Shown: positions 130 to 50,904, numbered from the stretch's first letter. The stretch is 64,000 bases of DNA from an uncultured Bacteroidota bacterium (GCA_903882805.1 CAIRYK010000094.1:34242-98241); one strand, 5' to 3'. Numbers and translations: made by a program. The notes: a model not told the origin generated them from the sequence alone.

Positions 130-1065
130 ATGGAAAAAATAAAACTCTCTTTGGTAGTACCCGTTTATTATGAAGAGGATTGTATCAGGCAATTTCTGAA
201 GGAAACTAAAGAAGTACTTGACAAACTGGAGATTGACTACGAATACGTGTTTATCGACGACGGTAGTAAGGATAAAACCACTGATATAATAAAAGAAGAA
301 GCGGCAGCAAACAAGAAAATAAAACTTGTGGAATTGTCGTACAATCATGGTAAGCAAGCTGCTGTAACGGCCGGAATCAACTACGCATCAGGCACCCATA
401 TGATATATATGGACCCCGATCTGCAAGACCCTCCGATAGAAATACCGCGCTTTCTGGAAGAAATGGCTAAGGGTTATGATGTTGTATATGGCATAAGGAG
501 AGAGAAAAAAGACAACTTCATCAATAAAATCTACTCTGGCATTTTCTGGGGCGTATTGCGCAGATTTACAGGATTGGAAATACCGAAAGGACTCGCTGTG
601 ATGCGCATGTTCAACCGAAAATTTGCCGATATGTTCATTCAGTACAAGGAACAAAACAGATTTATCGAGGGTATTTTTATGCATATAGGGCTTAAAAGCT
701 CACAATTAGCTATAGACCAACGCGAACGTTTCTCCGGTGTATCTAAGTTTAACTTCAAGCGCAAAATGAACCTTGCATTTGATGCTATATTCGACTTCTC
801 AGAAACGCCGCTGAAAATTGCAGTACGTATGGGCGTTGGTCTTACTGGTTTGGGCCTTTTGGGCATTGTGGCCTTGGCGTTTGCTAAGCTATTCTTACTC
901 AATTTTCAAGCTGGCTGGTTATCTATTATATCTGTAATAATTATCGCCACAGGACTGCAGATATTCTTTATTGGTATTGCGGCAATGTATATCGGGCGAG
1001 TGTATAAGGAAACCAAACACAGACCCCTGTATTCGGTAAAGGAAACAACAAACATTGACAAATGA
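130..1065 (+). CDS. Family 2 glycosyltransferase of the polyprenyl-phosphate sugar synthase type (ArnC/GtrB/DPM1-like)
   Basis: 311 aa. GT-A motifs VVPVYYEE, FIDDGSKD and DPDLQDPP are present, plus two C-terminal TM helices. ATGA overlap with the next gene at 1062-1065. Confidence 0.85.
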   Translation: MEKIKLSLVVPVYYEEDCIRQFLKETKEVLDKLEIDYEYVFIDDGSKDKTTDIIKEEAAANKKIKLVELSYNHGKQAAVTAGINYASGTHMIYMDPDLQDPPIEIPRFLEEMAKGYDVVYGIRREKKDNFINKIYSGIFWGVLRRFTGLEIPKGLAVMRMFNRKFADMFIQYKEQNRFIEGIFMHIGLKSSQLAIDQRERFSGVSKFNFKRKMNLAFDAIFDFSETPLKIAVRMGVGLTGLGLLGIVALAFAKLFLLNFQAGWLSIISVIIIATGLQIFFIGIAAMYIGRVYKETKHRPLYSVKETTNIDK

Positions 1066-1703
1066 AAAAACTGGCAATAATAGGATCAGGCGACTTGGGC
1101 CAACTAATTGCTTACCATGCACACACTGACAATCATTATCAGGTGGCAGGATATTTTGATGATTTTGCAACCCAGGGCGAGCAAAAAGGCGTAGCGCCGG
1201 TGTTAGGTAAATTGTCGGATATTGACGCGGCTTTCGAAAATGGTGTATTTGATGAAATTATCGTGGCGATAGGTTACAAACACTTTAGTTTTCGAAAAAA
1301 AGTGTTTGAAGATCTAAAAGGTCGTATTCCAATTGGTAAAGTAATCCATTCAAACGCCTATGTAGCCGCCTCCTGCACTATCGGCGAGGGTGTTGTAATA
1401 CTACCCGGTTGCACGCTCGATAATAATGCTGTTTTGCACGACAATGTGTTTCTTAACACCGCTGCCACCATAGCTCACGACAGTACGATAAAAGCGCATA
1501 CATTTTTATCGCCGCGTGTGGCCATAGCCGGTTTTGTGATTGTTGGCGAATGTTGTAATATTGGCATCAATTGTACGCTCATCGATAATATTACTCTTAC
1601 AGACAGGGTGCAAACCGGCGGAGGTGCAGTAGTAATCAATAATTTAGACATTCCGGGCCTTTATGTGGGCGTTCCGGCAAAACTCATAAAAAGTAGTAAT
1701 TGA
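1062..1703 (+). CDS. Sugar N-acetyltransferase, NeuD/PglD/VioB family (left-handed beta-helix)
   Basis: 213 aa. N-terminal IIGSGDLG Rossmann-like segment followed by hexapeptide-repeat pattern (IGEGVVI, IGECCNIGINCTL). Translationally coupled to both neighbours. Confidence 0.8.
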   Translation: MKKLAIIGSGDLGQLIAYHAHTDNHYQVAGYFDDFATQGEQKGVAPVLGKLSDIDAAFENGVFDEIIVAIGYKHFSFRKKVFEDLKGRIPIGKVIHSNAYVAASCTIGEGVVILPGCTLDNNAVLHDNVFLNTAATIAHDSTIKAHTFLSPRVAIAGFVIVGECCNIGINCTLIDNITLTDRVQTGGGAVVINNLDIPGLYVGVPAKLIKSSN

Positions 1704-1705
1704 CA

Positions 1706-2830
1706 ATGATCCCTTTTAACAAACCATACCTCACCGGCAAGGAAACAGATTATATTAAAGAAGCTGTATCGGGTGGAAAAATCTCGGGCGACGGCGTGTT
1801 TACCAAACGCAGCCACTCCTTCTTCGAAAATCGCTTTGGCTTCAAGAAATGCCTGCTAACCACATCGTGTACCGATGCATTGGAAATGGCAGCAATACTC
1901 ATCAACATACAGCCCGGCGACGAGGTAATAATGCCGTCTTATACATTTGTGTCTACCTCAAATGCATTTGTGTTGCGCGGCGCTAAAATCGTATTCTGTG
2001 ATAGCCGTACCGATCACCCGGGTATAGACGAGGATAAAATAGAAGCCCTGATAACTGATCGCACAAAGGCCATTGTACCAGTTCATTATGCCGGCATTGC
2101 CTGCGATATGGATAAAATAATGGACCTTGCAGATAAATACAACCTATTTGTAATAGAAGACGCTGCCCAGGCAATAGATAGCTACTACACTGGCCGCGAT
2201 GGCGTTAGGCGCCCATTAGGCTCCATTGGCCATATGGCTGCTTTCTCTTTTCACGAAACAAAAAATATTATGTCCGGCGAAGGCGGTATGCTGGTAATAA
2301 ATGACGAACGCTTTTTTGAGCGCGCTGAGATCATCCGCGAAAAGGGCACCAATCGCAGCAAATTCTTCCGCGGCGAAGTAGATAAATATGGCTGGGTAGA
2401 TATAGGCAGTTCATTCCTTCCATCGGATATGATAGCTGCGTTTTTATATGCGCAACTCGAAAACCTGGAAGATATTCAGGCTCGCCGCAAAGAAATATGG
2501 GATGCTTATTACGAGGGATTGAAACCGCTTGCCGATCGTGGACTTTTCAAACTGCCAGTGATACCAGATTTTGCTACCAACAATGCACACATGTTTTACC
2601 TGACCTGCAATAGCCTTGAGGACAGAAATAAAATAATTGCGCTACTTAAGTCACATCAGATATATGCTGTGTTTCACTATCTTAGTTTACATAAAAGCCC
2701 GTTTTATGCAGACAAGCATGATGGACGCGACCTACCTGAAACGGACCGTTATACAGACTGCCTTGTGAGATTGCCGATGTATTACGAGCTTAATCCACAA
2801 ATGGTACTCGACGTACTTAAAACACTGTAA
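1706..2830 (+). CDS. wecE: dTDP-4-amino-4,6-dideoxy-sugar aminotransferase (DegT/DnrJ/EryC1 family, WecE-like)
   Basis: Colinear with my memory of E. coli WecE from MIPFN onward (SCTDALEMAA, QPGDEVIMPSYTFVSTSNAFVLRGAKIVF). The track start at 1700 is TTG, so the ATG at 1706 is preferred. Confidence 0.88.
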   Translation: MIPFNKPYLTGKETDYIKEAVSGGKISGDGVFTKRSHSFFENRFGFKKCLLTTSCTDALEMAAILINIQPGDEVIMPSYTFVSTSNAFVLRGAKIVFCDSRTDHPGIDEDKIEALITDRTKAIVPVHYAGIACDMDKIMDLADKYNLFVIEDAAQAIDSYYTGRDGVRRPLGSIGHMAAFSFHETKNIMSGEGGMLVINDERFFERAEIIREKGTNRSKFFRGEVDKYGWVDIGSSFLPSDMIAAFLYAQLENLEDIQARRKEIWDAYYEGLKPLADRGLFKLPVIPDFATNNAHMFYLTCNSLEDRNKIIALLKSHQIYAVFHYLSLHKSPFYADKHDGRDLPETDRYTDCLVRLPMYYELNPQMVLDVLKTL

Positions 2831-2838
2831 TTCAACAA

Positions 2839-2890
2839 TTAGTAATAATACAAAAAGCCCCAATTTGGGGGCTTTTTGTATTATTACTAA
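2839..2890. terminator. Bidirectional rho-independent terminator between convergent genes
   Basis: Perfect 23-bp inverted repeat, ttagtaataatacaaaaagcccc / ggggctttttgtattattactaa, with a 6-nt loop. A/T tracts are present on both arms. Confidence 0.85.
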
Positions 2891-2899
2891 TAAGATTTT

Positions 2900-5098
2900 T
2901 TACTTCAGCAGTCCTGCAAAAACTTGCTTCATACCCTCTTTATTGAAATTGACGCGCACATACTGCTTACCAAATTCTGCCAACTCATCCCACCTTGTAT
3001 TATCGTTATAAACCCTGATAATTTCTTCTGCAAATGATTGCGGATCATTGACGCCCCTATACAAATATTGCTCATCCTTTGGCATTCCTTCGAAAGCGAT
3101 GTCTGTGCCTACAACCGGCACACCTTTAGCCATTGCCTCAATAACTTTTCCCTTTACACCGGCGCCCGACCGCAGTGGCACTATAGCAACCCTGGTTTTA
3201 GTGTAAATAGCATTTAATTCCTCTACGCTTACGTCCGGCAACACCTCCAAAGATTTAAAACGTTTTTTATAGTTGAATATAAATTCGGGCATCTTTGAGC
3301 CGGCTATGATAAGTGATATACCCTGCGCGTCGAGTTGTCCATATACCTCCTCCAAAAACCAACGCATCGCATCCTGATTTGGCGGGTGATTAAAACCACC
3401 TATAAAGAAAATTCCCGTCCTACTATCAAACGGCGACGTGTTAACAGGCACATCAAAATAATACGGAGGAATATACAGTACAGGCTTTGTGATATAATTT
3501 CTTAAATAGGCAATTTCTTCCGAACTGATTGCTAATGATACGCTCGATTGCTCATACATATAATCTTCAATTGCTTTCAGTTTTTTTGCTTGTTTAAGCA
3601 AAGAATTGTCACCTTTCTCCAGCCCTTCCTTTTCTAAACGCTGGTATCCAAGGTCGTGACCATAATAGATGGTGACTCCTGTATAGTTCTGCTCACGCAA
3701 AAAAGTAAGTATGGGCGTGCACACTGAAGACCTGCTTAAAATAATTGCATCGAAATTGCTGAGATTGTTTTTCAGATAATGCCTCCAACCGCGCAAACCA
3801 AAATTGAACTGATTACCATACAACACCTCTACTCCTTTTTCCTGATACATTTTCTCGTAATGTTTGCCGGTATTTGAGTTTTCACCCATAAACTTTACAC
3901 TACAATCTAAATCAAGCAATGCATCTATAAAGTTAGAAATAGTTCTGGAGCCGGCATCCTTATCTACTTGTGGCAAATAATGATCAATTACTAACACATG
4001 TTTTTTACCCGTCGTCCGGTCGCGTTCAAAAAAGGTATTCTCGCTATTCTTTGATTTTTTCTTGAGTTCGCTTGCCCAGCGTTCTCTAAACTTACGCTGA
4101 TTAATTGTCTGATGTTTTTTGATTCCCTTGTCGAGATCAGTGCCGTGCGACAAGCCTTCAAAATGCACTACTACCGAAAAGGGTTGATACATAACCTTGT
4201 ATCCACGCTTACGCACTTGAAAGCAAAGGTCTGAATCTTCGCAATAAGCTGGCAGAAAAACCTCGTCAAAACCTCCAATTTCTTTCCATAAATTCTTCGT
4301 TATCATTATAGAAGCTCCAGATATATAATCAGCCTCTTTAACGTAACAATACTCGGGGCGATTTGGGTTGTCGTGATTGCCGAAGTTGTGGGCGCTACCG
4401 TCTTGCCATATAATCCCACCGGCCTCCTGTAAGAGGCCATCAGGGTATATTAGTTTAGAACCTACCAACCCTATTTTAACATTGGATTTTATTAGGCTTA
4501 GCAACTCTATCAACCAATCTTTCTGTACTTGAGTATCGTTGTTCAAAAAAACAATATACTCACCTTGCGCCTGCTGTGCAGCGTTGTTACAATTTTTTAA
4601 AAAACCAAGATTGGTTTCATTTCTTATTATTCTAATATTTTCAAAATTATTGGCAATAATAGAGGTATCGTCAGTCGACAAATCGTCGGCTATAATCACT
4701 TCATAATTATCGAGTTTATTGTTCTCGAAGATAGAATGTATACAGTTGTAGGTTATGTCTACCTGATTATACATCGGTATAATTATGCTAACTTCTGGCT
4801 TGGCGCAATACGGAAGCGCGATTTTTAAATCCTTACTATAGTTTTTTACCGTAGGAGCTATTAAAGGGAAATTATCGGGAATGTAGTAGTTTTCACCTCC
4901 TTTATTGGCGCCTGATGTGGGCGCATTGCTAATACTGGAGTAATGAAAATGAGATTTTTTATGCAGCAAACTCCTGATACCTGTTACAATTCCTTTATCC
5001 TTGATCTCTACAAACAACTCATTTATTACTTTGTTTTTGTCGGGACTATTGGCAAAACGAACGGCATAGGTCAGGTATTTTTGCAATTTATTTCTCAT
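2900..5098 (-). CDS. Two-domain glycosyltransferase (GT2 N-terminal half fused to GT4/GT1-type C-terminal half)
   Basis: 732 aa. GT-A part shows VSIIIPMYNQ, IIADDLSTDDT and FLNNDT. The C-terminal GT-B part ends with the GVPVVGTDIAFEGM-type motif. Confidence 0.8.
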   Translation of the reverse strand: MRNKLQKYLTYAVRFANSPDKNKVINELFVEIKDKGIVTGIRSLLHKKSHFHYSSISNAPTSGANKGGENYYIPDNFPLIAPTVKNYSKDLKIALPYCAKPEVSIIIPMYNQVDITYNCIHSIFENNKLDNYEVIIADDLSTDDTSIIANNFENIRIIRNETNLGFLKNCNNAAQQAQGEYIVFLNNDTQVQKDWLIELLSLIKSNVKIGLVGSKLIYPDGLLQEAGGIIWQDGSAHNFGNHDNPNRPEYCYVKEADYISGASIMITKNLWKEIGGFDEVFLPAYCEDSDLCFQVRKRGYKVMYQPFSVVVHFEGLSHGTDLDKGIKKHQTINQRKFRERWASELKKKSKNSENTFFERDRTTGKKHVLVIDHYLPQVDKDAGSRTISNFIDALLDLDCSVKFMGENSNTGKHYEKMYQEKGVEVLYGNQFNFGLRGWRHYLKNNLSNFDAIILSRSSVCTPILTFLREQNYTGVTIYYGHDLGYQRLEKEGLEKGDNSLLKQAKKLKAIEDYMYEQSSVSLAISSEEIAYLRNYITKPVLYIPPYYFDVPVNTSPFDSRTGIFFIGGFNHPPNQDAMRWFLEEVYGQLDAQGISLIIAGSKMPEFIFNYKKRFKSLEVLPDVSVEELNAIYTKTRVAIVPLRSGAGVKGKVIEAMAKGVPVVGTDIAFEGMPKDEQYLYRGVNDPQSFAEEIIRVYNDNTRWDELAEFGKQYVRVNFNKEGMKQVFAGLLK

Positions 5099-5354
5099 TA
5101 CTCCTCTCTTCGGTTGTTTTTTGCAAATTTAGTCAAGTTTTCTTGTATTAAAATTTTGGATTCTTAATGCTTTACTAAACTTATGCCATACAGAGAAGAA
5201 ACAGTTGAAATTTTTGTATTAAATTTGCATTAAAGTTGCGTTAACTAAAAGGTTGTTTTAACTGAATTTTTAGAAAATCGCGAAATTAATATTTTGGCAA
5301 CCAAAAATTTAGCACGATTTTTGTGGCAACCAAGGTAAATACTCTTTTTACTAA

Positions 5355-6095
5355 ATGAAAGATCAGACTACACTAGATATTACCTTAGAAAGAACGCCTA
5401 CCCAAGTTGCTTCTCCGTCGGATATTTCGAGCATTCGATACATGTTTCACGAGATGAATCAACAAAACCTTGAACATCAGCATGCCACATATTATGATAG
5501 CATCAAGCGTTTAATGGATGTGACTGTATCATTGGTGTTCATAATTGGTGTTATGTCTTGGTTGACGCCGGTTTTAGCATTGCTTATCAAATTAACATCT
5601 AAAGGACCTGTGTTTTTTATACAAAAGCGTACGGGATATCTGGGTGTAGAATTCAAATGCTTTAAGTTTAGAACCATGTTTGTAAACGACGAAGCCGACG
5701 TTAAGCAAGTTTCTATAAACGACAACAGAATTACCGCCATTGGTAAATTTTTAAGAATAACACACCTCGATGAAACGCCCCAGTTTTTCAACGTTATACT
5801 TGGTGAAATGAGTCTTGTAGGTCCTCGTCCGCATATGTTAATACACACGCGCGATTACAGTGAAACAATACCCTACTATAATCTTCGTCTCGAAGTTTGC
5901 CCTGGTATGACTGGAATGGCCCAAATAAAAGACTACATCGGCGAAATAAATGTTGAGCGCGAATTACGCAAAAGAATACAGTGGGATGTGTTCTATGTCA
6001 AAAACCGCAGCTTGGGCTTAGACATAAAAATACTCTTTACTACATTTTGGCTGGTAATACAAAAAGCGACAAAGCCATTTACGACAAAAAAATAA
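5355..6095 (+). CDS. Initiating phosphoglycosyl transferase (bacterial sugar transferase, PglC/WbaP C-terminal type)
   Basis: 246 aa. One re-entrant hydrophobic helix, then KGPVFFIQKRTG, FKFRTM, NDNRIT, DETPQF and GPRPH motifs. Confidence 0.85.
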   Translation: MKDQTTLDITLERTPTQVASPSDISSIRYMFHEMNQQNLEHQHATYYDSIKRLMDVTVSLVFIIGVMSWLTPVLALLIKLTSKGPVFFIQKRTGYLGVEFKCFKFRTMFVNDEADVKQVSINDNRITAIGKFLRITHLDETPQFFNVILGEMSLVGPRPHMLIHTRDYSETIPYYNLRLEVCPGMTGMAQIKDYIGEINVERELRKRIQWDVFYVKNRSLGLDIKILFTTFWLVIQKATKPFTTKK

Positions 6096-9672: not shown

Positions 9673-10989
9673 CTATTGTTTCTGGAAACGAACTCTTGAT
9701 TTCACATTTCCATCTTCGCTTTTTACAATTACTATGTAAGTTCCAACAGGTATAGAAGCAACATTGAACACATTTGAACCAGCTATGCCGACTCTTTCGT
9801 TTAATGTTATTCTACCTGTCATATCAACTATTGAAATTTGATCGTTGACATCTAAACCAGTAACATTAATTACACTGCTGGATGGGTTAGGATATACTTT
9901 TACATTATCGGAAGAAGTCATAGATTTCGTACCAAGTGAAGGCGATGCGGCGCGAGTAAACGCAATAGCAGAATCGCGAGCGGCGGTACTAAAAGCATAG
10001 AAATAGGTGAAATTAGCTGAATTTGCCGGATGCAAATCAGTGCCAGACGTAACCCTATGCACCATGAATGACGAACTGTCTACAGGCGCTAAGTGTGCAA
10101 CATGAAAAGACAAACCAATGGCAACATCGGCAGTATTAGTGTATCCGGCGCTAAAATAGCCGCCGGGCATTGTTCCGCCGTAAACAGTTGAAAGGTCAAT
10201 TGTAGAGCTTATAGGCCATGAATTGTACACAAGACAAGTAGCGTTGGTGTCTGTAGTACCAATTGCCATATAAGATGCAGAATGGCCTGTACCGATACCA
10301 GTAGCAGAAACTATTGTTGTATCTGTGCTTTGATACTCTACAACATTTCTTGTAGTAAAACCACCGCCGGGCTGTCTTTGGTCATTATCCGGGTCAAGAG
10401 TACGCAGGTAGTATATATCATCCTTTGCCGTCGATGCTAAATTGGTCAACACAATTTTCACTGTAAAAAACAGGCTATTGGTATCTAATGTTGTAATTTG
10501 TTTTATTTCAACACTATCATTGCTACCTACCCAAGTTCCGATCAGGTTAGAGCCACTGGTTGTATAAGAAACGTTTGTGCCAGATAATGTGCCGGTAAAA
10601 CCTGTTCCTGTAGTGGTATTGTAAGCCTGATATTGCGTGCCGCCCATCTGGATGCTCCATCCCTCAAACGGGGAACCCGGCAAAAAATAATCGCCATAGA
10701 AAGGCGGTGTGCCTACAGCCCAACCGTCCATATCCGGATCTACTATAAATCCTAGTCCTGTACCTCCTGTTAAAGTGTAGCAAGGGTTTACAGCTCCTGC
10801 GCTTGGGCTATTACCATGGTATCCGGCAGGCATATGAGGTGCGCCAAATGATCCGCTGGGCGCTATACCTACTTCTACGTATCTTCCTTTCAGGAATACA
10901 CTGCAACTGTCGAGTTGCGCATTTGCTGTACCATAGGAAAGCACAAGAGCGAGCGCTACAAGAGATTTAGTAAGGTCTAATTTCTTCAT
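9673..10989 (-). CDS. Secreted protein with T9SS C-terminal sorting domain, unknown function
   Basis: 438 aa. Signal peptide ends TANA|Q. The C-terminal about 80 aa (VKVYPNPSSSVINV...GTYIVIVKS) match the Por secretion tail pattern. Confidence 0.8.
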   Translation of the reverse strand: MKKLDLTKSLVALALVLSYGTANAQLDSCSVFLKGRYVEVGIAPSGSFGAPHMPAGYHGNSPSAGAVNPCYTLTGGTGLGFIVDPDMDGWAVGTPPFYGDYFLPGSPFEGWSIQMGGTQYQAYNTTTGTGFTGTLSGTNVSYTTSGSNLIGTWVGSNDSVEIKQITTLDTNSLFFTVKIVLTNLASTAKDDIYYLRTLDPDNDQRQPGGGFTTRNVVEYQSTDTTIVSATGIGTGHSASYMAIGTTDTNATCLVYNSWPISSTIDLSTVYGGTMPGGYFSAGYTNTADVAIGLSFHVAHLAPVDSSSFMVHRVTSGTDLHPANSANFTYFYAFSTAARDSAIAFTRAASPSLGTKSMTSSDNVKVYPNPSSSVINVTGLDVNDQISIVDMTGRITLNERVGIAGSNVFNVASIPVGTYIVIVKSEDGNVKSRVRFQKQ

Positions 10990-32845: not shown

Positions 32846-32997
32846 AATAAAAAAATATTTTTTACCGCACATAGTTTAATGACGGCAATGAAATATATTT
32901 ATACCCTGTAAGACTACCTTCGCCAATATTTTTTGCGGACGACATTTTACACACCCGTTAATATTCATTCTTAATCTTTATTTTTTAAAACATTTTG

Positions 32998-33558
32998 ATG
33001 CTGATGAAAACCCGTATAAAAACAGCGATTATTTCCAGTATGGCTGTAGTGGCTGCATTTATTTCACTTACTTCTACCACATCTTGCAACAGAGATAAGT
33101 GCAAAACAGTTGTTTGTGCTCACAACGGTGTATGCGATGGGGGTATTTGTCTTTGTCCGGCTGGTTACGAGGGTTCAAATTGTGAAACCGTTTCGAGGGA
33201 TAAATTTTTAGGTAACTGGACTGTTTTTGAAAAAGGAAGCGTTACAAATTCGGCTCAATACGGTGTTACTGTTGGTCCTGCAGCTAATATTTCTCATATT
33301 GCTATTACTAACTTTTACAACTACTTCCGCACTCAGATCGACGGTTATATTGTAAAGGACACCATGTACATTCCCAACCAACAATATGAAGGAAAACTGG
33401 TATTTGGCATAGGTTATATATATGCTGATGTTACCTATAAACAAAATGCAGCGATACTTTTGAGATACGAAGTTATTGATACTGCCACACAACTAGTAAA
33501 TGACTTTGGTTACAACTCTGTAATCGACGGAAGTAACCCTTCTATGTGGAACAAATAA
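32998..33558 (+). CDS. Lipoprotein with N-terminal EGF-like module
   Basis: 186 aa from the ATG at 32998 (the track start 32995 is TTG). Signal ends TSTTSC. It is followed by CKTVVCAHNGVCDGGICLCPAGYEGSNC, which fits the six-Cys EGF pattern. Confidence 0.65.
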   Translation: MLMKTRIKTAIISSMAVVAAFISLTSTTSCNRDKCKTVVCAHNGVCDGGICLCPAGYEGSNCETVSRDKFLGNWTVFEKGSVTNSAQYGVTVGPAANISHIAITNFYNYFRTQIDGYIVKDTMYIPNQQYEGKLVFGIGYIYADVTYKQNAAILLRYEVIDTATQLVNDFGYNSVIDGSNPSMWNK

Positions 33559-33589
33559 TTGTAAACACTGTTATATTTTGGTAAATACT

Positions 33590-33625
33590 AAACGCCAAAG
33601 TTTCCGCTCGGATTCTTTGGCGTTT
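33590..33625 (+). terminator. Rho-independent terminator
   Basis: 11-bp stem aaacgccaaag / ctttggcgttt with a 14-nt loop. Confidence 0.7.
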
Positions 33626-33991
33626 GCACATATTGACAATCTTTTTCTGAACCGTACATAAAAATTTCACCTACATAAAGCCAATAAAGATTAATAAAAA
33701 GATATTTTCTTCACTGTGGCTTAATCATTTTTAAAGAATATTTTTGTGTACGAAATAGCTGCTAATTTGGGCACAATTTCTGGAATTGATTTGTTTGTAT
33801 CAGAAACGTTGAGTATATTTAGCAGACAAACAAAACAAAAAACATTTTACCGTATATTGCAATCTAAATGACTGTTAGGAGGATTTAATCAATTTAAAGA
33901 TATTTTTCCACCAAACTCCCTGTTAATCAACTAACCAATCAGAATTAATAAGGTCAAGATAGTTGACCGGATTAGTTTAATAATATCAAAT

Positions 33992-34408
33992 ATGGAAAAT
34001 ACAAATACCCCACTTCAGAAGGTAGTTATTATCGAAGACGATTTGGCGATTCAAACCTTGTTGTGTACAGTATTGGAATATAATTTTATTGTTACAGCTT
34101 TCGACAATGGTATGGAAGCTTTGTCTTTTTTACAAAAAGGAAATATTCCGGATATTATTATTTCAGATCTAAATACTCCTGAACTGAATGGGTATGATAT
34201 GCTTCTACAACTTAAAGCAAGTAGTTTCTTTAGTTCAATTCCAATCATAATTTTGTCGGGTGAAGAAGGTTCTGATACCCGAATCAAGTGTTTTGAAGCT
34301 GGCGCAGATGATTACATTATCAAACCTTTTAATCCGCGTGAGTTAGAGGTAAGAATTAATGCAATTCTAAAGCGTTATGGAAAAACATTGATCACTAAAC
34401 ATTTTTAA
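33992..34408 (+). CDS. Stand-alone response-regulator receiver (CheY-like)
   Basis: 138 aa. Acidic pocket IEDD, phospho-acceptor IISDLNTP, a conserved Ser in IIILSG and a Lys in YIIKPF. Confidence 0.88.
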   Translation: MENTNTPLQKVVIIEDDLAIQTLLCTVLEYNFIVTAFDNGMEALSFLQKGNIPDIIISDLNTPELNGYDMLLQLKASSFFSSIPIIILSGEEGSDTRIKCFEAGADDYIIKPFNPRELEVRINAILKRYGKTLITKHF

Positions 34409-34420
34409 TAAAACCGGTGC

Positions 34421-35605
34421 ATGCCTGATATTAATGCTGGTATAATAGCCTTGTTGAATGTCGATACCCCTACAATGGACCGACTAAACAAGTGTAATTT
34501 TGGCAATAACAAACTGGTGCTTTTTAACAATGTTATTGAACTTTGTAAAGATTTCGAAAAACTAAAACTGAATATAGTTGCCATTATTTCTGCAAGCGAG
34601 GTAATGGGCACCGGCGATGTAAGCCTTTTGGAGACATTCCGTAATAAGGACATGTTGCATATACCCTTTTTCCTTATCTGCGAAAAAATAAATGACAACC
34701 TATTACGTATTTGCCTGCAGGCAGGCGTAGCCGATGTATTTGTAGCTCCGCTAGACATGCCTGTCATTGAAAGCAGAATAAATTTTTTAATAAAGCACTG
34801 GGCAAACCTGCTGAACAAAACCGGTAAAAAAGAGATTGCAACATACAAAACACCTTTGCTAAAACGCACTTTCGACATCGTTTTTTCCAGCATTGCAATA
34901 ATATGCCTGTCGCCGCTTATTCTTATTGTTATTCTGATAATGAAACTGGAGTCAAAAGGTCCTGTATTTTATTATTCTCTGCGCGTAGGCACCGGTTATA
35001 GAGTGTTTAAATTCTACAAATTCAGGTCGATGTATGTAAATGCCGATCTGAAATTGAAGGAATTCAAACATCTGAATCAATATAATACAGACGCTAAAGT
35101 ACCGGAAGAAAAAGAGAAAAAAGCCCTTTGCGACGACTGCATAAAAGCCGGAGAAAAGTCTTGCCGTAACCCATTGTATTCAGATAACAACACATGGTGT
35201 GAAAAGCAATACCTCGATACAAAGAAGAAACAAAGTGGTTCGGCATTTTTTAAACTCAAAAACGACCCACGCATTACCCGCGTTGGCAACTTCCTGCGCA
35301 ACACCAGTATTGATGAATTGCCCCAACTATGGAACGTATTAAAAGGCGATATGAGTATTGTTGGCAACCGTCCGCTCCCCCTCTATGAAGCGGAAAAACT
35401 GACAACTGACAAATATGCGCTGCGCTTTATGGCGCCTGCCGGCCTAACTGGCTTGTGGCAGGTGGAAAAAAGAGGGAAAGGCAAAATGTCGGAAGAAGAG
35501 CGCCTTATGCTGGACAATACCTATGCCGAAACCCATAGTTTCTGGTACGATATCAAATTGATTCTCAAAACAATACCGGCCTTATTTCAAAAAGAAAATG
35601 TGTAA
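34421..35605 (+). CDS. Degenerate receiver domain fused to an initiating phosphoglycosyl transferase (bacterial sugar transferase)
   Basis: 394 aa. Residues about 150-394 carry the re-entrant helix plus [34 protein letters not shown] and VGNRP. Residues 1-130 have a receiver-like pattern without the catalytic residues. Confidence 0.8.
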
Positions 35606-35610
35606 TAGAA

Positions 35611-36441
35611 ATGAGACCTATAGGCGTACCCGTTTTTGTTAAACAACTTCGCAACCCTGCTATCTCTAACGATGCAAGAATCGCTGAAATAAAAAAACAA
35701 TACAGCCTTTTCAAAAAAGGCAACCCGGAAGTCTCTATTATTATTCCCGCTTACAACGAGGAAAAAGATATTTTGCCTACCCTGCAATCTTTAGTGGCAG
35801 CTACGCCCAAATTATGTGTAGAGATCATTGTTGTCAATAACAATTCAACTGATAAAACAGAGCAATTGGTAAAAGCAACGGGCATTAAGTGCATCACCGA
35901 AATGCAGCCCGGCGTAACGGCTGCGCGCAATGCAGGGCTGGCAGAAGCAAAGGGCAAATATATAATGAATGCAGATGCAGATACTACCTACCCTCCCGGA
36001 CTGGTAGATGCAATGATTGCGCCACTTATAGCCGACGATAAAATAAGCCTAACCTACGGGCGTTATGCATTTATTCCTACAGGCGTTACATCAAGGTTCA
36101 CTTATTTTATTTACGAGCATATTGTAGGTTTGTTACGTTGGTTTAAAAAAACCTTCAAAGAAGAGGCGGTAAATGTAGGCGGATTCAATTCCTGTTTCAG
36201 ACGTGAGCAGGGTTTGGCGGTAGATGGTTACAATCATCCACTAGGAGCAAACGAAGATGGATTTCTTGCATTGAAACTACGTAATAAAGGCTTTGGCAAA
36301 CTTTTAGAAATATCCGGTAGTAGCACGCTCTCCTGGACCACCGACAGAAGAATACAGATAGATGGGGGTTTGATAAAGGGAATCATAAAACGGATAAAAA
36401 GAGTCTTTTTTAACAAAGGCGAAAACCACCCCTCTTTATAA
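35611..36441 (+). CDS. Family 2 glycosyltransferase (soluble)
   Basis: 276 aa. Motifs VSIIIPAYNEE, VVNNNSTDKT and NADADT are present, with no TM segments. It starts 5 nt after the preceding gene. Confidence 0.82.
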   Translation: MRPIGVPVFVKQLRNPAISNDARIAEIKKQYSLFKKGNPEVSIIIPAYNEEKDILPTLQSLVAATPKLCVEIIVVNNNSTDKTEQLVKATGIKCITEMQPGVTAARNAGLAEAKGKYIMNADADTTYPPGLVDAMIAPLIADDKISLTYGRYAFIPTGVTSRFTYFIYEHIVGLLRWFKKTFKEEAVNVGGFNSCFRREQGLAVDGYNHPLGANEDGFLALKLRNKGFGKLLEISGSSTLSWTTDRRIQIDGGLIKGIIKRIKRVFFNKGENHPSL

Positions 36442-36541
36442 TTTACTTGTTATCGTACCATTAATGTAACGCGAACCCTATGTACTTTTAGTCTGTTTGA
36501 CTAACTTTAAGTTTCCCGAATCAAAAAACTGAAAAGCGCTT

Positions 36542-37900
36542 ATGAACGGCAGCCAAACTATAAAAATCTTTATTTTAGATGACGATCTTTTATATAGTTC
36601 TATGCTGGAGCACTTCCTTTCTTTGAACCCCGACTACAGCGTTACCAAGTTTAATGACGAAGAAGAGTTTTTCAAGAATCTGTATCTATGCCCTGAAATA
36701 GTAACGCTCGACTATGCATTGAAAAAAATGAACGGAGCGCAAGCGCTAAAAAAAATAAAGGAATACAATTCGGAAATAGAAGTTATTATGATATCGGGCC
36801 AGGAAGATGTGGCTACCGCCGTAGGCTTGCTCAACGAGGGCGCCTACGACTATATTGTAAAGAACGACCAAATGAAAGACCGCCTCTGGAAGGTGATACA
36901 ACACCTGATAGAAAATAAAAATCTGAAGAAAGAGGTTGCCGGTCTGAAAAACGAACTCAAAAAGAAATACGACTATTCCAAAACGCTAATTGGCGAAAGC
37001 CCGGCTATAAAGCGCACGCTCAACCTGATAGAAAAAGCGGTAAATGCAAACATAACCGTATCTATTACCGGCGAAACGGGCACTGGTAAAGAAGTAGTGG
37101 CAAAAGCTATACACTTTAACTCACCGAGGCAAAAACATCCGTTTGTTGCTATCAACGTAGCGGCTATACCCAAAGAACTACTGGAAAGCGAGCTTTTCGG
37201 GTACGAAAAAGGCGCATTTACAGGCGCTACCGGCCGTCGGATTGGGAAATTTGAAGAGGCGAACAAAGGCACTATTTTCCTTGACGAGATAGGTGAAATG
37301 GATATATACTTGCAGGCAAAAATACTGCGTGTAATTCAGGAGCGGGAAATAACACGCATAGGCAGCAATACTGTGGTGCCAATAGATGTGCGTATTATCG
37401 TTGCCACTCATAAAAATCTGGCCAGCGAGGTTGCAAAAAAGACGTTTAGGGAAGATCTCTATTTCCGGCTGAAGGGACTAACCATAGAGCTACCTCCACT
37501 GCGCGAGCGCGGTAACGATATACTGATACTGGCCAAGCACTTTATAGCCAATTACTGCAAAGAAAACAACCAGAAGCTAAAAACTATGACGCCTGCAGCC
37601 CAGCAAAAACTACTATCGTATAGTTTTCCGGGCAATGTGCGCGAACTTATATCGATAGTGGAACTGGCTGTAGTGATGGCTGAAAATAACATAATAGACG
37701 AAGAGGAAATTTGCCTGGAACTGAACTCGAATATCAGCAATATACTGAGTAAAGAAACGACGCTAAAAGAATACGAGTTTCAGATAATTGACTTCTTCCT
37801 GAAAAAATACGACAACAATGTGCTGCTGGTGGCACAAAAGCTCGACATCGGCAAATCTACTATATACAGAATGTTGCAAAATGCTGAGAAAAACAGCTAA
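36542..37900 (+). CDS. Sigma-54-dependent transcriptional activator (NtrC family: REC + AAA+ + Fis-type HTH)
   Basis: 452 aa. Receiver with LDDD and TLDY, Walker A GETGTGKE, the sigma-54 contact loop GAFTGA, and a C-terminal HTH (AQKLDIGKSTIYRML). Confidence 0.9.
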   Translation: MNGSQTIKIFILDDDLLYSSMLEHFLSLNPDYSVTKFNDEEEFFKNLYLCPEIVTLDYALKKMNGAQALKKIKEYNSEIEVIMISGQEDVATAVGLLNEGAYDYIVKNDQMKDRLWKVIQHLIENKNLKKEVAGLKNELKKKYDYSKTLIGESPAIKRTLNLIEKAVNANITVSITGETGTGKEVVAKAIHFNSPRQKHPFVAINVAAIPKELLESELFGYEKGAFTGATGRRIGKFEEANKGTIFLDEIGEMDIYLQAKILRVIQEREITRIGSNTVVPIDVRIIVATHKNLASEVAKKTFREDLYFRLKGLTIELPPLRERGNDILILAKHFIANYCKENNQKLKTMTPAAQQKLLSYSFPGNVRELISIVELAVVMAENNIIDEEEICLELNSNISNILSKETTLKEYEFQIIDFFLKKYDNNVLLVAQKLDIGKSTIYRMLQNAEKNS

Positions 37901-48834: not shown

Positions 48835-50820
48835 TTACATTTTCACCCAGTTCCTCACTGTTTTTACACCTTCTGTTTCAACCACTAAGGCATACATGCC
48901 GGGAGCAAGGTTAGTAACATTCAGCATATAGGCATTATCGCCATTGCTTAGTTGTTTAGTCACCATGTTCATCCTTTGACCTTGCATATTCACTACATAC
49001 ATTGTAGCGACTGTTGCAGTGTTAGCATTTACAACCACATTCAGGTTGCCCGACGTTGGGTTAGGAAATACATTAACGGCAACAGTAGCAGCAGTATTTA
49101 CGACCTGCAATGGAGGGAATGAAATTGTAGCTGAATCGATGAGACCAATACCCAGATTGTAGTATTTGCCCGATGGCGTCAACTGCAATTTTACAGGACG
49201 TACCTGATAGTACTTAAGACCGCTTATACCCGTAGCATCTGTAAAGGTTGTGCCCGTTACCATAGATGTCGATACTCTTGTGTAAGCGCCATAAGCGCTG
49301 TCGGCTCTGTAAATGTAGTAGCCTATTACTGCTGGATCGGGCGATGCGGTCCAGCTAAGGCTTGCGCCTGCATGAAAACCACCGGTGATAACGAGATTAG
49401 ACGGTTGCTTCACATAATCTGTACGCAATGATAAATCGCCCATAAGCGCAACATGTACCCAATGGTTGCCATAACCCGTTGGCGTATACAGCGAACCATT
49501 ATTGTTTTGCGAAAGTCTGGCCGAGTAACCGATATTTTCGCCCAATGCCATGTGGTGCATAAACCAGTTTGGCCTTCCTGCCCAGCAACAAGTAAGCGCC
49601 GGTGTAGAGGAGCAAAGCTGAGCGCGCAGGAAATTGTTGGTAACATTCCAGTCGCCAAAATAACTACCAAACATCATCGTGAAAATACCGTTCACTGGGT
49701 TAGTCGCAAAGTCGGATGTGTTACCTATACCGCCTGCGCTGGTAAAGCTACCGCCACCGCAACCATAAGCCCACTGATAAGTACCGGAAGCCAAAGTAGA
49801 AATATATGTGGACGACGGCACGCTTGCCATGCTGTCTGTACCAACTAATGGAGCAAAATTACGCCAGCCATTTGCGGCAAATGCCTCGCCGCTAAATGCG
49901 CCGAAATTGTCGCATATTATTGCGCGGTGGCGCATAGCCAATGTATCCATTTTATAGGCATGATCCTTATCCAGATAACGTCTCATCATTTCCACTTCAG
50001 TGGCCGAAAATGCGGGCATGTTATAGAAATCTATCCTGCTCACCTGCAATTCAGCATCTGGAGAAAAGGCTATCTGATCATACTTGCCATCGCCGGGTAT
50101 ATTCTGATTCGCGGGATAGCTCGACACAATGTCGTTAACAGTCGCATCGGTCCATGAGCCTGAAATGCTACCATAAAAAATGTCTGCAGGCCAAGCGCCC
50201 AAATGATCCGGATGACCATCCGGATTCTGGTCGCCGCTGTAAGGAACCGCAACATGCCCCAATAACAAAACTGCTTTTACATTCAGGTAAGAACCGCAAT
50301 CTGCCACGATTGCAGCTTTGATAGTTGCGTCGGTAGCGCTGCGAGGAAAATCATGACGCCTTACCTGCCAGCCATCTCCGCTTAAATCGTTCATTAGTGT
50401 TTTTATGTTTGACGCACATGAATCCGAAAATGTGCTATCGACAATCAGCTCAACAATACCGCGATTATGTATGGCAGGGTTCCTGATACCTGCATAAATA
50501 TACCCTGTGGCATTTAGCGTACCGCTGACTGCCTTTACAATATATTCATAGGCCGAATCAATGATCACCGCCGTATCAGTCCATGTTACGGACCCAGTAG
50601 GCAATGTTGCCACCGACATACCCCATGTTGTTGATGTTTTCGACTTCTTCCAAATGTAATATGTAGGGCTGCTGAATGTTATTGACTTCCAATTCAGCGT
50701 AATTTTTACCGGCGATTCGGAAACAACCGCAGATAACTCAACAGTGTAATCCTCTGTTGTTTGCCCATAAGAAAAGTTACCAACCGCCATTAATGCCAAT
50801 AGCGTAAAAATGCGTTTCAT
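48835..50820 (-). CDS. Large secreted protein with T9SS C-terminal sorting domain
   Basis: 661 aa from MKRIFTLLALMAV (cleavage SYG|Q). C-terminal FPNPTSGNLNV...GMYALVVET tail. The central region is unassigned. Confidence 0.75.
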   Translation of the reverse strand: MKRIFTLLALMAVGNFSYGQTTEDYTVELSAVVSESPVKITLNWKSITFSSPTYYIWKKSKTSTTWGMSVATLPTGSVTWTDTAVIIDSAYEYIVKAVSGTLNATGYIYAGIRNPAIHNRGIVELIVDSTFSDSCASNIKTLMNDLSGDGWQVRRHDFPRSATDATIKAAIVADCGSYLNVKAVLLLGHVAVPYSGDQNPDGHPDHLGAWPADIFYGSISGSWTDATVNDIVSSYPANQNIPGDGKYDQIAFSPDAELQVSRIDFYNMPAFSATEVEMMRRYLDKDHAYKMDTLAMRHRAIICDNFGAFSGEAFAANGWRNFAPLVGTDSMASVPSSTYISTLASGTYQWAYGCGGGSFTSAGGIGNTSDFATNPVNGIFTMMFGSYFGDWNVTNNFLRAQLCSSTPALTCCWAGRPNWFMHHMALGENIGYSARLSQNNNGSLYTPTGYGNHWVHVALMGDLSLRTDYVKQPSNLVITGGFHAGASLSWTASPDPAVIGYYIYRADSAYGAYTRVSTSMVTGTTFTDATGISGLKYYQVRPVKLQLTPSGKYYNLGIGLIDSATISFPPLQVVNTAATVAVNVFPNPTSGNLNVVVNANTATVATMYVVNMQGQRMNMVTKQLSNGDNAYMLNVTNLAPGMYALVVETEGVKTVRNWVKM

Positions 50821-50904
50821 ATCTGATGATTTTTTGTACAAGATATAAATATTTTCTGACTAGATGTGCGATATTATTATCCACCTCATAGAGTACACAT
50901 AAGA

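Follow-up and report, generated by a model that had tools for sequence, protein, structure and literature searches.

Gene content and layout of the locus

The locus lies in a 64-kb stretch of DNA from an uncultured Bacteroidota bacterium (hereafter the window, meaning the whole stretch analysed) and comprises four co-directional genes on the plus strand, separated by 12, 5 and 100 nt and preceded by a non-coding leader (Table 1). They are predicted to encode a stand-alone receiver (REC), a fusion of a pseudo-receiver to a monotopic phosphoglycosyl transferase (PGT), a soluble GT2 glycosyltransferase and an NtrC-type sigma-54 activator. A preliminary description of this DNA, made before any database search, had given the same four reading frames, strand and gaps, and all of them were recovered, together with its domain calls (Pfam Response_reg, Bac_transf, Glycos_transf_2 and Response_reg plus Sigma54_activat on genes 1 to 4, respectively) and the motifs KGPVFY, YKFRSM, NDPRIT, DELPQL, GNRP and GAFTGA in the translations. 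Since the order LptD, amidase, EGF-like lipoprotein, REC, PGT, GT2, activator is repeated in independent assemblies, the locus is not an assembly artefact; in the window, the activator gene is followed by a convergent lipA. Homologues of histidine kinases, H-NOX, Wzx, Wzy and Wzc are all absent from the 64-kb window, in agreement with the lack of a kinase, flippase, polymerase and chain-length regulator noted before for the cluster.

Table 1. Coordinates of the features, counted from the first letter of the window.
Feature	Position	Strand	Size or extent	Remark
AT-rich intergenic leader	33559..33991	+	433 nt	GC about 0.30-0.32
Gene 1, REC	33992-34408	+	138 aa	ORF
Gene 2, pseudo-receiver::PGT fusion	34421-35605	+	394 aa	ORF
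Pseudo-receiver domain of the PGT	34421..34825	+	aa 1-135 (about 140 aa)	(beta/alpha)5 fold
Predicted monotopic PGT catalytic domain	34862..35605	+	aa 148-394	Bac_transf
Family-specific insertion in the catalytic domain	35054..35215	+	aa 212-265, 54 aa	
Gene 3, soluble GT2	35611-36441	+	276 aa	ORF
Gene 4, predicted NtrC-type sigma-54 activator	36542-37900	+	452 aa	ORF

The leader had been described as AT-rich and 366 nt long. It is AT-rich, and the whole intergenic region is longer than was stated (433 nt); its start holds an inverted repeat (33590-33625) that follows the upstream gene, which leaves the 366 nt that had been quoted. At 33739-33746 we found a candidate Bacteroidota-type -7 box, TATTTTTG, which we take to be part of a promoter, assuming the Bacteroidetes consensus TAnnTTTG. 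Blocks of the leader, including TAATTTTG at the same position, are conserved with a 94%-identity relative (L084), and no conservation of these blocks was seen in relatives more distant than this one. Neither TGGCAC-N5-TTGC with up to two mismatches, the absence of which in front of the cluster had been noted before, nor GG-N10-GC with up to three mismatches was found in the leader, and the leader and flanking intergenic regions held no sigma-54 (-24/-12) promoter. Throughout the window TGGCAC-N5-TTGC occurs at chance level (66 observed versus 67 expected), and among 80 relatives there were only four intergenic near-consensus sigma-54 sites, none of which precedes REC. Rfam gave no credible match in the leader.

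Domain architecture of the encoded proteins

Gene 1 matches Pfam Response_reg (1.8e-24), with OmpR/PhoB-type receivers as its best NCBIfam matches. The complete catalytic set attributed to this receiver is indeed there (E15/D16, D59, S89 and K111) and is retained in 75/75 orthologues, and we predict that the protein is a phosphorylatable single-domain response regulator. Its best 120 homologues are all stand-alone proteins of 98-175 aa.

Residues 1-147 of the window PGT have no match in Pfam. When the N-terminal domain was modelled with AF2 (pLDDT 81.6, pTM 0.76), five beta-alpha units were obtained, and each of the best 50 Foldseek matches in the PDB is a receiver or a CpaE-type pseudo-receiver, with E about 2e-6 and TM about 0.7. 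Nearly all matches of the family profile to PDB sequences are likewise receivers (best E = 3.6e-5), one weak unrelated match in the same-profile PDB search having E about 0.1. Response_reg is matched by 31/39 family members and CoA_binding_3 by none of the 39, and hhalign of the domain against the stand-alone REC family gave 98.2% probability (E = 4e-14). The AF2 fold, Foldseek and hhalign thus agree with the preliminary reading of the first 130 aa as receiver-like, the (beta/alpha)5 fold being CheY-like, as that reading required. The position of the phospho-acceptor is Ala58 in the window PGT, and that of the conserved Lys is Ala109. Across the 137 family members the acceptor position is held mostly by Q (68) or E (34), with N in 8 and D in 7, the Lys position by L in 44 and K in 27, and no acidic metal-binding pair is conserved. 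Because the acceptor Asp, the acidic pair and the conserved Lys are all missing, we regard the domain as a pseudo-receiver, that is, on sequence and model evidence, as a true but degenerate receiver that has no phospho-acceptor. The full-length AF2 model of the fusion is poor (pLDDT 64, pTM 0.39).

The remainder of gene 2 matches Bac_transf (PF02397; 4e-61, 206 bits with the cut-off at 27, aa 148-389) and exceeds the profile length by about 60 aa. TIGR03025 aligns with 1e-75, under its cut-off, and since all NCBIfam equivalogs stay under their cut-offs, the sugar donor is not assignable. WbaP (2.4e-41) and PglC (3e-23) are the nearest solved PGT relatives, and the D298-E299 dyad (IDELPQL) aligns with DELPQL of WbaP. 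A single hydrophobic segment was found, at aa about 149-184 and including S164-P165, and the predicted topology is one re-entrant membrane helix broken at Ser-Pro; the four-helix bundle and DUF (CoA_binding_3) of large monoPGTs are missing, and there is no second hydrophobic segment. D298, E299, P165 and N316-R317-P318 are invariant in 137/137 family members. These features place the protein in the monotopic PGT superfamily, with sugar-1-phosphate transfer to polyprenyl phosphate as its predicted activity. The catalytic domain is interrupted by a family-specific insertion whose four cysteines (C237, C240, C248 and C260) are invariant in 137/137 members and are also kept in divergent branches; the WbaP alignment breaks at 211/266, showing that WbaP lacks this insertion, which may bind zinc.

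Gene 3 matches Glycos_transf_2 (3.6e-28), no hydrophobic segment was found in its product, and the enzyme probably adds the second sugar. Gene 4 matches Response_reg (3.7e-16), Sigma54_activat (2e-70) and AAA_lid_14, has receiver residues D13/D14/D57 and the AAA+ motif GAFTGA, and shows a weak Fis-type HTH (HTH_8, E = 0.028, under cut-off); with AtoC/NtrC-like NCBIfam matches, also under their cut-offs, it is predicted to be an NtrC-type sigma-54 enhancer-binding protein.

Conservation and neighbourhood in Bacteroidota

The PGT family was found in at least 597 species-level genomes. We compared 80 loci, two of which are truncated, leaving 78 informative for the position of REC, and in 78/78 of these REC lies directly upstream of the fusion and in the same direction, with a median gap of 8 nt across the related loci. 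The same adjacency and orientation hold in the divergent branches P0149 and P0235, whose fusions are seen by Pfam as Response_reg plus Bac_transf. Order and spacing of the pair are maintained across three Bacteroidota classes, and all other neighbours vary, suggesting that the stand-alone REC is functionally tied to the fusion. REC distances also correlate slightly more closely with those of the pseudo-receiver (r = 0.78) than with those of the catalytic domain (r = 0.73), the partial r being 0.56; this is weak evidence for such a link, and shared phylogeny confounds these values. None of the homologues searched joins REC, pseudo-receiver and PGT in one natural fusion.

Conservation of the trio in relatives, on which the preliminary description had made its reading depend, was seen for REC and PGT; a cognate GT2 goes with the pair as a rule, an orthologue being present within 7 kb in 42/80 loci and in three arrangements. 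Further polysaccharide genes occur in 52/80 loci and Wzx-, Wzy- or Wzc-like genes in 34/80; relatives at 75-77% identity carry a full cluster, with a kinase, Wzx, Wzy and more glycosyltransferases around the trio. Judged by these neighbours, relatives would use the pair to initiate a Wzx/Wzy-type exopolysaccharide pathway, and the earlier picture of a self-contained, flippase-less module for a short glycan describes this genome only. The same applies to the label 'kinase-less', since 25/80 loci encode an Hpt-containing hybrid kinase within 7 kb. Several of these linked kinases carry an HNOBA domain, and two such loci have an H-NOX partner. The enzyme that adjoins the pair in relatives is predicted to be a cytoplasmic hybrid histidine kinase of the HNOBA/PAS type that itself contains an Hpt domain, sometimes encoded with the gas sensor H-NOX and the activator in what appears to be one operon.

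The activator had been counted as part of the module; it is present here, and only 3/80 loci have it within 7 kb of REC-PGT. Orthologues at 55-60% identity adjoin REC-PGT in L069, L074 and L077, and in L090/L091 the activator is the first gene of an operon that continues with H-NOX and a hybrid kinase; the L091 operon is located upstream of REC-PGT, at a distance of about 9 kb. In Sediminibacterium sp. C3 an activator followed by a hybrid kinase is found about 85 kb from REC-PGT. The activator is an orphan in the window and likely provides the same phosphorelay with a second output.

Comparison with the 94% relative, whose reduced arrangement matches that of the window (dS 0.8-2), gives dN/dS values of 0.022 for the PGT, 0.041 for GT2 and 0.004 for REC. 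The reading frames of the trio are intact, all family-invariant residues are kept in the window PGT, and a minimal GT2-REC-PGT trio is also found in Mucilaginibacter.

A proposed phosphorelay switch and its relation to known systems

We propose, with a probability of roughly 0.6, that REC and PGT form a conserved Bacteroidota initiation module in which phosphorylated REC switches the PGT through the pseudo-receiver, contact and phosphotransfer both being part of the proposal. The Hpt of the hybrid kinase would deliver phosphate in parallel to the stand-alone REC, at D59, and to the receiver of the activator, which would supply a separate transcriptional output. Phosphorylated REC would then bind the PGT, in the simplest form by docking on the pseudo-receiver as a heterodimer via the conserved alpha4-beta5-alpha5 faces, and would allosterically switch the transfer of sugar-1-phosphate to undecaprenyl phosphate. 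The pair probably acts as an on-off switch for the initiation of sugar chains; we infer the phosphotransfer partners, and likewise the sign of the regulation and the glycan that would be made. As binding is proposed to gate transfer, undecaprenyl phosphate would be committed to a glycan chain only with the signal present, so that this commitment, if the mechanism is true, is controlled post-translationally by a phosphorelay. In this genome, the kinase and the remaining pathway would be encoded elsewhere or have been lost, with the pair, GT2 and the activator kept under strong purifying selection.

The pair might instead be held together by co-expression only, with REC serving as a phosphate sink or shuttle or having a different target, for example the activator or the kinase, with the pseudo-receiver only dimerising or stabilising the PGT, and with adjacency reflecting a shared operon. 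Single-domain receivers often serve as sinks in Hpt relays, and it fits such a role that several loci encode extra receiver proteins and that the homologues searched include no triple fusion. Large PGTs, moreover, dimerise through their cytoplasmic domain (PMC12802240). What makes this reading doubtful is that the REC-PGT order and the short gap are invariant in three classes while the other neighbours change, and that REC stays beside the PGT, under the strong constraint given above, even where no kinase is nearby, as in this genome. Control might also be exerted solely by transcription, the activator driving a REC-PGT-GT2 operon and the receiver domains being accessory; the activator does adjoin the trio here and REC-PGT in three relatives, and shares an operon with a linked kinase in L090/L091. 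However, neither the leader nor the region before REC in the 80 relatives has a sigma-54 promoter, 77/80 loci have no activator within 7 kb, and the fused pseudo-receiver is left unexplained, which renders this explanation improbable.

Two further readings concern the fusion and the trio themselves. That in the window a polysaccharide cluster broke up and left the trio stranded and without function would agree with the kinase, Wzx, Wzy and glycosyltransferases that relatives at 75-77% identity have and this genome does not; yet intact reading frames, complete retention of family-invariant residues, the low dN/dS (0.004-0.041) against a relative of the same layout and the minimal trio of Mucilaginibacter make it quite improbable. 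Still harder to maintain is that the N-terminal domain is the remnant of the Rossmann-like DUF (CoA_binding_3) of a WbaP-type PGT which lost its transmembrane bundle. The catalytic domain is nearer to WbaP than to PglC, and phmmer and TIGR03025 alignments extend N-terminally as far as about aa 89-93, where they cover the last part of the WbaP DUF, but profile, fold and Pfam evidence all favour receivers, no member matches CoA_binding_3, and hhalign against the large PGTs from the loci gave 0.1% probability, with a profile of only three sequences on their side.

With WbaP (Salmonella, PDB 8T53) and PglC (Campylobacter, PDB 8G1N) the window PGT shares the catalytic domain, the DE dyad and the Ser-Pro re-entrant helix, and its chemistry is predicted to be alike; it differs from both in the 54-aa Cys4 insertion between KFRSM and DPRIT, in reading GNRP rather than GPRP, and at the N-terminus, where it has a pseudo-receiver, WbaP a bundle and DUF, and PglC nothing. 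The pseudo-receiver resembles the N-terminal domains of CpaE/TadZ (PDB 4MYR, 4DAD, 4N0P), in which a CheY fold that lacks a functional phospho-acceptor serves to bind partners and which, in the case of CpaE, appear among the Foldseek matches. Heterodimers of atypical regulators such as BldM-WhiI are a further case of such interaction modules. Unlike in these cases, the window pseudo-receiver is fused to a predicted glycan-initiating enzyme and paired with a dedicated canonical receiver encoded upstream.

Two-level control of a polysaccharide locus has a counterpart in the Syp system of Vibrio fischeri, where SypG is a sigma-54 activator and SypE acts post-transcriptionally on the STAS protein SypA. 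SypE output differs from that proposed here in not targeting a PGT. Hybrid kinases including SypF and the NO/HnoX-controlled HahK govern these two response regulators (PMC12369376), a layout that recalls the linked hybrid kinases, some of them H-NOX-associated, and the two regulators described above. Neither the organisms nor the gene families are related to those described here, and the window has no kinase or H-NOX.

Receiver-domain fusions to small monoPGTs were seen in a sequence-similarity network by O'Toole, Imperiali and Allen (PNAS 2021, cited through PMC12802240). By the citing paper's description, they too join a receiver to a Bac_transf catalytic domain; in the window subfamily the receiver escapes Pfam, being annotated in only 1 of the best 120 window-PGT homologues. 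In the literature searched, which covers the 2021 fusions through the citing paper, we found neither the degenerate acceptor site nor the obligatory stand-alone partner nor the Cys4 insertion described.

That a single-domain receiver can directly control an initiating PGT was demonstrated for the first time in 2025, in an unrelated bacterium, and the preliminary description, which knew of no such mechanism, has been superseded on this point: in Myxococcus xanthus, phosphorylated EpsW interacts directly with the PGT EpsZ and activates it (Schwabe et al., mBio 2025, PMC12802240). EpsZ belongs to the large PGTs, is dimeric and has a four-helix bundle and a DUF without the dimerising beta-hairpin, EpsW was modelled on its DUF and catalytic domain, and the phosphodonor is the CheA-type kinase DifE (PMC12802240). 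Because this precedent acts on a large dimeric enzyme and small monoPGTs are reported to be monomeric (PMC12802240), the mechanism at our locus may differ. The window PGT has neither bundle nor DUF and carries the fused pseudo-receiver and Cys4 insertion instead, the REC gene of its family always lies immediately upstream, and the linked kinases are HNOBA/PAS hybrids with Hpt domains. Common to both systems are a single-domain regulator with an intact phosphorylation site and, in 34/80 related loci though not in the window, Wzx/Wzy-type genes, and the authors of the EpsW-EpsZ study expect the principle to extend beyond myxobacteria (PMC12802240).

Gene cluster and its surroundings

The module comprises a stand-alone receiver (REC), a monotopic phosphoglycosyl transferase (PGT) with a receiver-like N-terminus, a soluble GT2 and an NtrC-type sigma-54 activator. 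The ORF positions, strand and gaps (12, 5 and 100 nt) of the preliminary description proved exact, and Pfam matched the four expected families in the expected genes; the Fis-type HTH of the activator reached E = 0.028 only. Using NCBIfam, we found gene 2 closest to EPS/WbaP/WcaJ sugar-transferase models and gene 4 closest to AtoC/NtrC, both under the equivalog cut-offs. Among the module proteins, a hydrophobic segment occurs in the PGT alone (aa 149-184) and is absent from the GT2. REC and PGT share a reading frame and are separated by TAA TAA and three codons only; a fusion of the two into one ORF was found in no relative.

Features of the module and of the surrounding window
Feature	Position	Strand	Details
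Gene 1 (REC)	33992-34408	+	Pfam Response_reg 1.8e-24
Gene 2 (PGT)	34421-35605	+	Pfam Bac_transf 4e-61, aa 148-389
Gene 3 (GT2)	35611-36441	+	Pfam Glycos_transf_2 3.6e-28
Gene 4 (activator)	36542-37900	+	Pfam Response_reg, Sigma54_activat (2e-70), AAA_lid_14
EGF-like lipoprotein gene	32995-33558		small, Cys-rich
Inverted repeat	33590-33625		start of intergenic region
Leader blocks	33680-33850		near-identical in the 94% relative
TAnnTTTG-type box	33739-33746		among the shared leader blocks
REC-PGT junction	34400-34423		shared reading frame
Cys4 insertion of PGT	35054-35215		54 aa, PGT aa 212-265
Sigma-54-like site	36010-36024	-	one mismatch, inside GT2 gene
Separate glycan-synthesis cluster	130-6095		GT2, PglD-like hexapeptide acetyltransferase, DegT-type aminotransferase, GT2-GT4 fusion, second PGT
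Two ORFs	9673-10989 and 48835-50841 (minus strand)		C-terminal type IX secretion sorting domain (Por_Secre_tail), in keeping with a Bacteroidota origin

The intergenic region 5' of REC spans 433 nt at a GC content of about 0.30-0.32 and opens with an inverted repeat behind the lipoprotein gene, so that the 366-nt leader reported earlier corresponds to this region minus its start. Several leader blocks, for example ATAAAGATTAATAAAAAGATATTTTCTT and GAATTGATTTGTTTGT, recur almost unchanged in L084, the relative with a 94%-identical PGT. When the leader was aligned with those of seven relatives, conservation was seen with the closest one only and with none of the more distant ones. Rfam models matched the leader and genes at chance level only, and a scan for sigma-70-type promoters and terminators did not rise above its shuffles. 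The EGF-like lipoprotein gene that precedes the module also adjoins it in L084, L087 and L088, the closest relatives. Elsewhere in the window, the content of the separate glycan-synthesis cluster, which includes a minus-strand GT2-GT4 fusion of 732 aa and a plain small monoPGT of 246 aa, resembles a bacillosamine-type amino-sugar pathway.

Receiver, pseudo-receiver and catalytic domain

Because aa 1-147 of the window's PGT gave no Pfam match, we put the earlier claim of a receiver-like N-terminus to four independent tests. A profile of the N-terminal domain built from 39 orthologues and searched against all PDB sequences yielded 91 matches, almost all of them response-regulator receivers (best E 3.6e-5), the sole listed non-receiver being a weakly matching designed TIM-barrel (E about 0.1). 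Scanned singly, 31 of the 39 orthologous N-termini matched Pfam Response_reg (best 1.3e-7). AlphaFold2 modelled aa 1-140 as five beta-alpha units (pLDDT 81.6, pTM 0.76), and the top 50 Foldseek matches of this model in the PDB were all receivers or pseudo-receivers, including PorX, CheY, WspR and CpaE pseudo-receivers, at E about 2e-6 and TM about 0.7. Finally, hhalign aligned the N-terminal family with the stand-alone REC family over 114 columns at 98.2% probability (E = 4e-14). All four tests bore the claim out. We also considered that the domain might be a homologue of the WbaP DUF and rejected this possibility: CoA_binding_3, the domain found at this position in large PGTs, matched none of the 39 N-termini, and hhalign against the large PGTs of the fetched loci, a profile of three sequences only, gave 0.1% probability. 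The full-length PGT model was poor (pLDDT 64, pTM 0.39) and was not used for fold search or domain packing.

The two receivers differ in their phosphorylation chemistry. In the stand-alone REC, the (E/D)-D pair, D59, S/T and K are kept in 75/75 orthologues. In the hhalign register the acceptor D59 lies opposite PGT position 58, which is Ala in the window and Gln (68), Glu (34), Asn (8) or Asp (7) among 137 distinct family members; at the position of the conserved Lys the window has Ala and other members Leu (44) or Lys (27), and an acidic pair is not conserved across the 137. Since the acceptor Asp is rare and neither the Lys nor the acidic pair is conserved, the domain is a true pseudo-receiver. 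Pfam still detects the fused receiver in the divergent branches P0149 and P0235, where some members have an acceptor Asp without the acidic pair.

In the catalytic half, the DE dyad, Ser-Pro helix break and N-R-P motif are present in 137/137 members. Between its KFRSM and DPRIT motifs lies an insertion whose cysteines C237, C240, C248 and C260 are invariant in the same 137 and kept in the divergent branches. Neither the known monotopic PGTs WbaP and PglC nor the other PGT of the window has this Cys4 insertion, which could be a zinc-binding element found together with the fused receiver.

Distribution, neighbours and the sigma-54 activator

When one genome per GTDB species was scanned with a pattern from the full-length PGT alignment, at least 600 matches were obtained, at least 597 of which encode relatives. 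Those listed include Chitinophagaceae, Sphingobacteriaceae (Mucilaginibacter, Pedobacter) and Cyclobacteriaceae, and cultured genera such as Pedobacter, Mucilaginibacter, Sediminibacterium and Cyclobacterium carry the REC-PGT pair. Neighbourhoods were counted in the best 80 of the at least 597 loci, with 7-kb flanks. The survey for fusions beside single-domain receivers that the preliminary description had proposed found REC immediately 5' of the fusion and on the same strand in 78 of these 80, the other two being cut at their 5' end; the median gap was 8 nt, and in P0149 and P0235 the REC gene lies 17-25 nt upstream. We found no REC-pseudo-receiver-PGT triple fusion that could serve as a Rosetta stone: matches of about 500 aa in a representative search were unrelated receiver proteins, and the top 120 REC homologues were all stand-alone. 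A phosphorylatable receiver and a PGT with a dead receiver form an invariant gene pair.

All other surroundings of this pair vary, its commonest neighbours being Hpt-containing hybrid kinases and polysaccharide machinery. Hybrid histidine kinases of the type PAS-HisKA-HATPase-REC-Hpt, several starting with an HNOBA domain, occur in 25 of the best 80 loci, mostly divergent from REC, which removes the 'kinase-less' label. Nor does the idea of a self-contained module for a short glycan hold, as 52 of the 80 have further polysaccharide genes and 34 have Wzx-, Wzy- or Wzc/Wzz-like genes; a GT2 orthologue lies within 7 kb in 42, in three different arrangements. In the closest relatives on long contigs (75-77% identity), the order is HNOBA hybrid kinase, GT2, acetyltransferase, Wzx, DUF4184, REC, PGT, GT2, two more GT2s, ATP-grasp, GT4 and Wzy, with no sigma-54 activator within 8 kb on each side. 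Several Pedobacter genomes (L035, L053, L055, L057, L060 and L063) have REC-PGT flanked by two different hybrid kinases and no adjacent polysaccharide genes; the upstream kinase is of the HNOBA type and the downstream one, of about 1440 aa, has GAF, PAS, two receivers and Hpt.

The reduced layout of the window is real. The order LptD, amidase, EGF-like lipoprotein, REC, PGT, GT2, activator was found again in independent assemblies, and Mucilaginibacter likewise has a minimal trio, GT2-REC-PGT, with no other polysaccharide genes. Compared with the relative that shares this layout and the 94%-identical PGT (dS 0.8-2.1), dN/dS was 0.004 for REC, 0.022 for the PGT overall (pseudo-receiver 0.041, catalytic domain 0.012) and 0.041 for the GT2, showing that the trio is under strong purifying selection. 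No kinase or H-NOX is encoded in the whole 64 kb window, and a convergent lipA follows the activator. The kinase-less, short-glycan, four-gene layout describes a rearranged locus of one lineage.

Only 3 of the best 80 loci have an activator orthologue (55-60% identity) within 7 kb of REC-PGT, a flank size that under-counts the link. On two Chitinophagaceae contigs (L090 6001-11919; L091 10001-15919) the activator opens an operon with an H-NOX (HNOB, 7.6e-47) and an HNOBA-PAS hybrid kinase of 1328 aa that contains an Hpt domain, which suggests gas (NO or O2) sensing as a possible input. The L091 operon lies ~9 kb upstream of REC-PGT, and the L090 locus ends before reaching the pair. L069 carries an activator-kinase operon oriented divergently to REC-PGT. 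In Sediminibacterium sp. C3 a hybrid kinase with Hpt again starts 6 nt behind the activator, and these two genes lie ~85 kb from REC-PGT. From these operons, the activator is a recurrent, non-obligatory partner of the kinase and, via the kinase, also of the module. As the preliminary description had noted for the window, no sigma-54 promoter precedes the cluster; none was found in the window leader, in the activator-linked intergenic regions or 5' of REC in the best 80 loci, so there is no evidence that the activator drives the REC-PGT operon. A GGGCAC-N5-CTGG near-match in the leader was rejected as it is not kept in the 94% relative. The one-mismatch site TGGCGCAATCATTGC inside the GT2 gene is most likely due to chance, because the window-wide count of such sites equals the shuffled expectation.

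Proposed switch and comparison with known systems

Conservation strongly supports a coupling of receiver and PGT. We propose that a hybrid kinase phosphorylates REC via its Hpt domain and that REC~P then docks on the PGT, the most economical form of the complex being a receiver/pseudo-receiver heterodimer. Docking would switch glycan initiation on or off, and the activator would provide a parallel transcriptional output. OmpR/PhoB-type receivers, which the stand-alone REC resembles, dimerise through their alpha4-beta5-alpha5 face, and beta4-alpha4-beta5-alpha5 is the most conserved stretch of both the REC and the pseudo-receiver family. In a mirror-tree comparison, REC distances correlated with those of the pseudo-receiver at r = 0.78 and with those of the catalytic domain at 0.73 (partial r 0.56), which agrees weakly with a REC-pseudo-receiver pairing and is confounded by shared phylogeny. 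The invariant Cys4 insertion might belong to the REC-PGT interface. If the switch is wired to H-NOX/HNOBA kinases in many species, sensing of NO or oxygen would act post-translationally on the first committed step of exopolysaccharide synthesis. For the reading as a whole, namely a Bacteroidota heterodimer switch that gates a bundle-less PGT, is wired to H-NOX/HNOBA in many species and has a parallel sigma-54 branch, we estimate a probability of roughly two in five. What had been observed in the window stands; of its interpretation, the receiver-PGT coupling and the pseudo-receiver persist, and the kinase-less four-gene short-glycan module and the unprecedented control do not.

Little is understood of how bacteria share out undecaprenyl phosphate between peptidoglycan and the surface glycans that are optional, and direct action of a response regulator on an initiating PGT has one experimentally supported case so far. 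The REC-PGT family offers a much broader and simpler test bed, being a two-gene cassette whose enzyme lacks a transmembrane bundle and has a separable N-terminal regulatory module. If REC does dock, allosteric control would be shown to be possible for small-type monoPGTs too, the receiver-PGT fusions seen in sequence networks would be explained, and H-NOX gas sensing would be tied to polysaccharide initiation in Bacteroidota.

The preliminary description was not aware of control of this kind for PGTs, yet a precedent exists in Myxococcus xanthus. There the single-domain regulator EpsW, once phosphorylated, interacts directly with the large PGT EpsZ and so activates it post-translationally; EpsW is proposed to stabilise the active EpsZ dimer, and the mechanism is predicted not to be confined to myxobacteria (PMC12802240, 2025). 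That small monoPGTs can carry receiver domains is attributed to O'Toole et al. 2021, as cited in PMC12802240; our full-text literature search found no further paper combining monoPGTs and receiver domains. The two-branch layout, in which a hybrid kinase and its Hpt supply both a sigma-54 activator and a second regulator, resembles the Vibrio fischeri Syp network, where an HnoX-controlled kinase likewise provides input (PMC12369376). Unlike EpsZ, the PGT of the window family has neither bundle nor DUF; it carries a fused degenerate receiver accompanied by the Cys4 insertion and is always encoded beside a dedicated canonical receiver, and its linked kinases are H-NOX-associated hybrid kinases, whereas EpsW-EpsZ is linked to a chemosensory CheA. 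A heterodimer switch would solve the problem that EpsW-EpsZ solves by a second and different mechanism, and would do so in at least about 600 species; the value of the family lies in being a widespread, simple and tractable second example beside EpsW-EpsZ rather than a new category.
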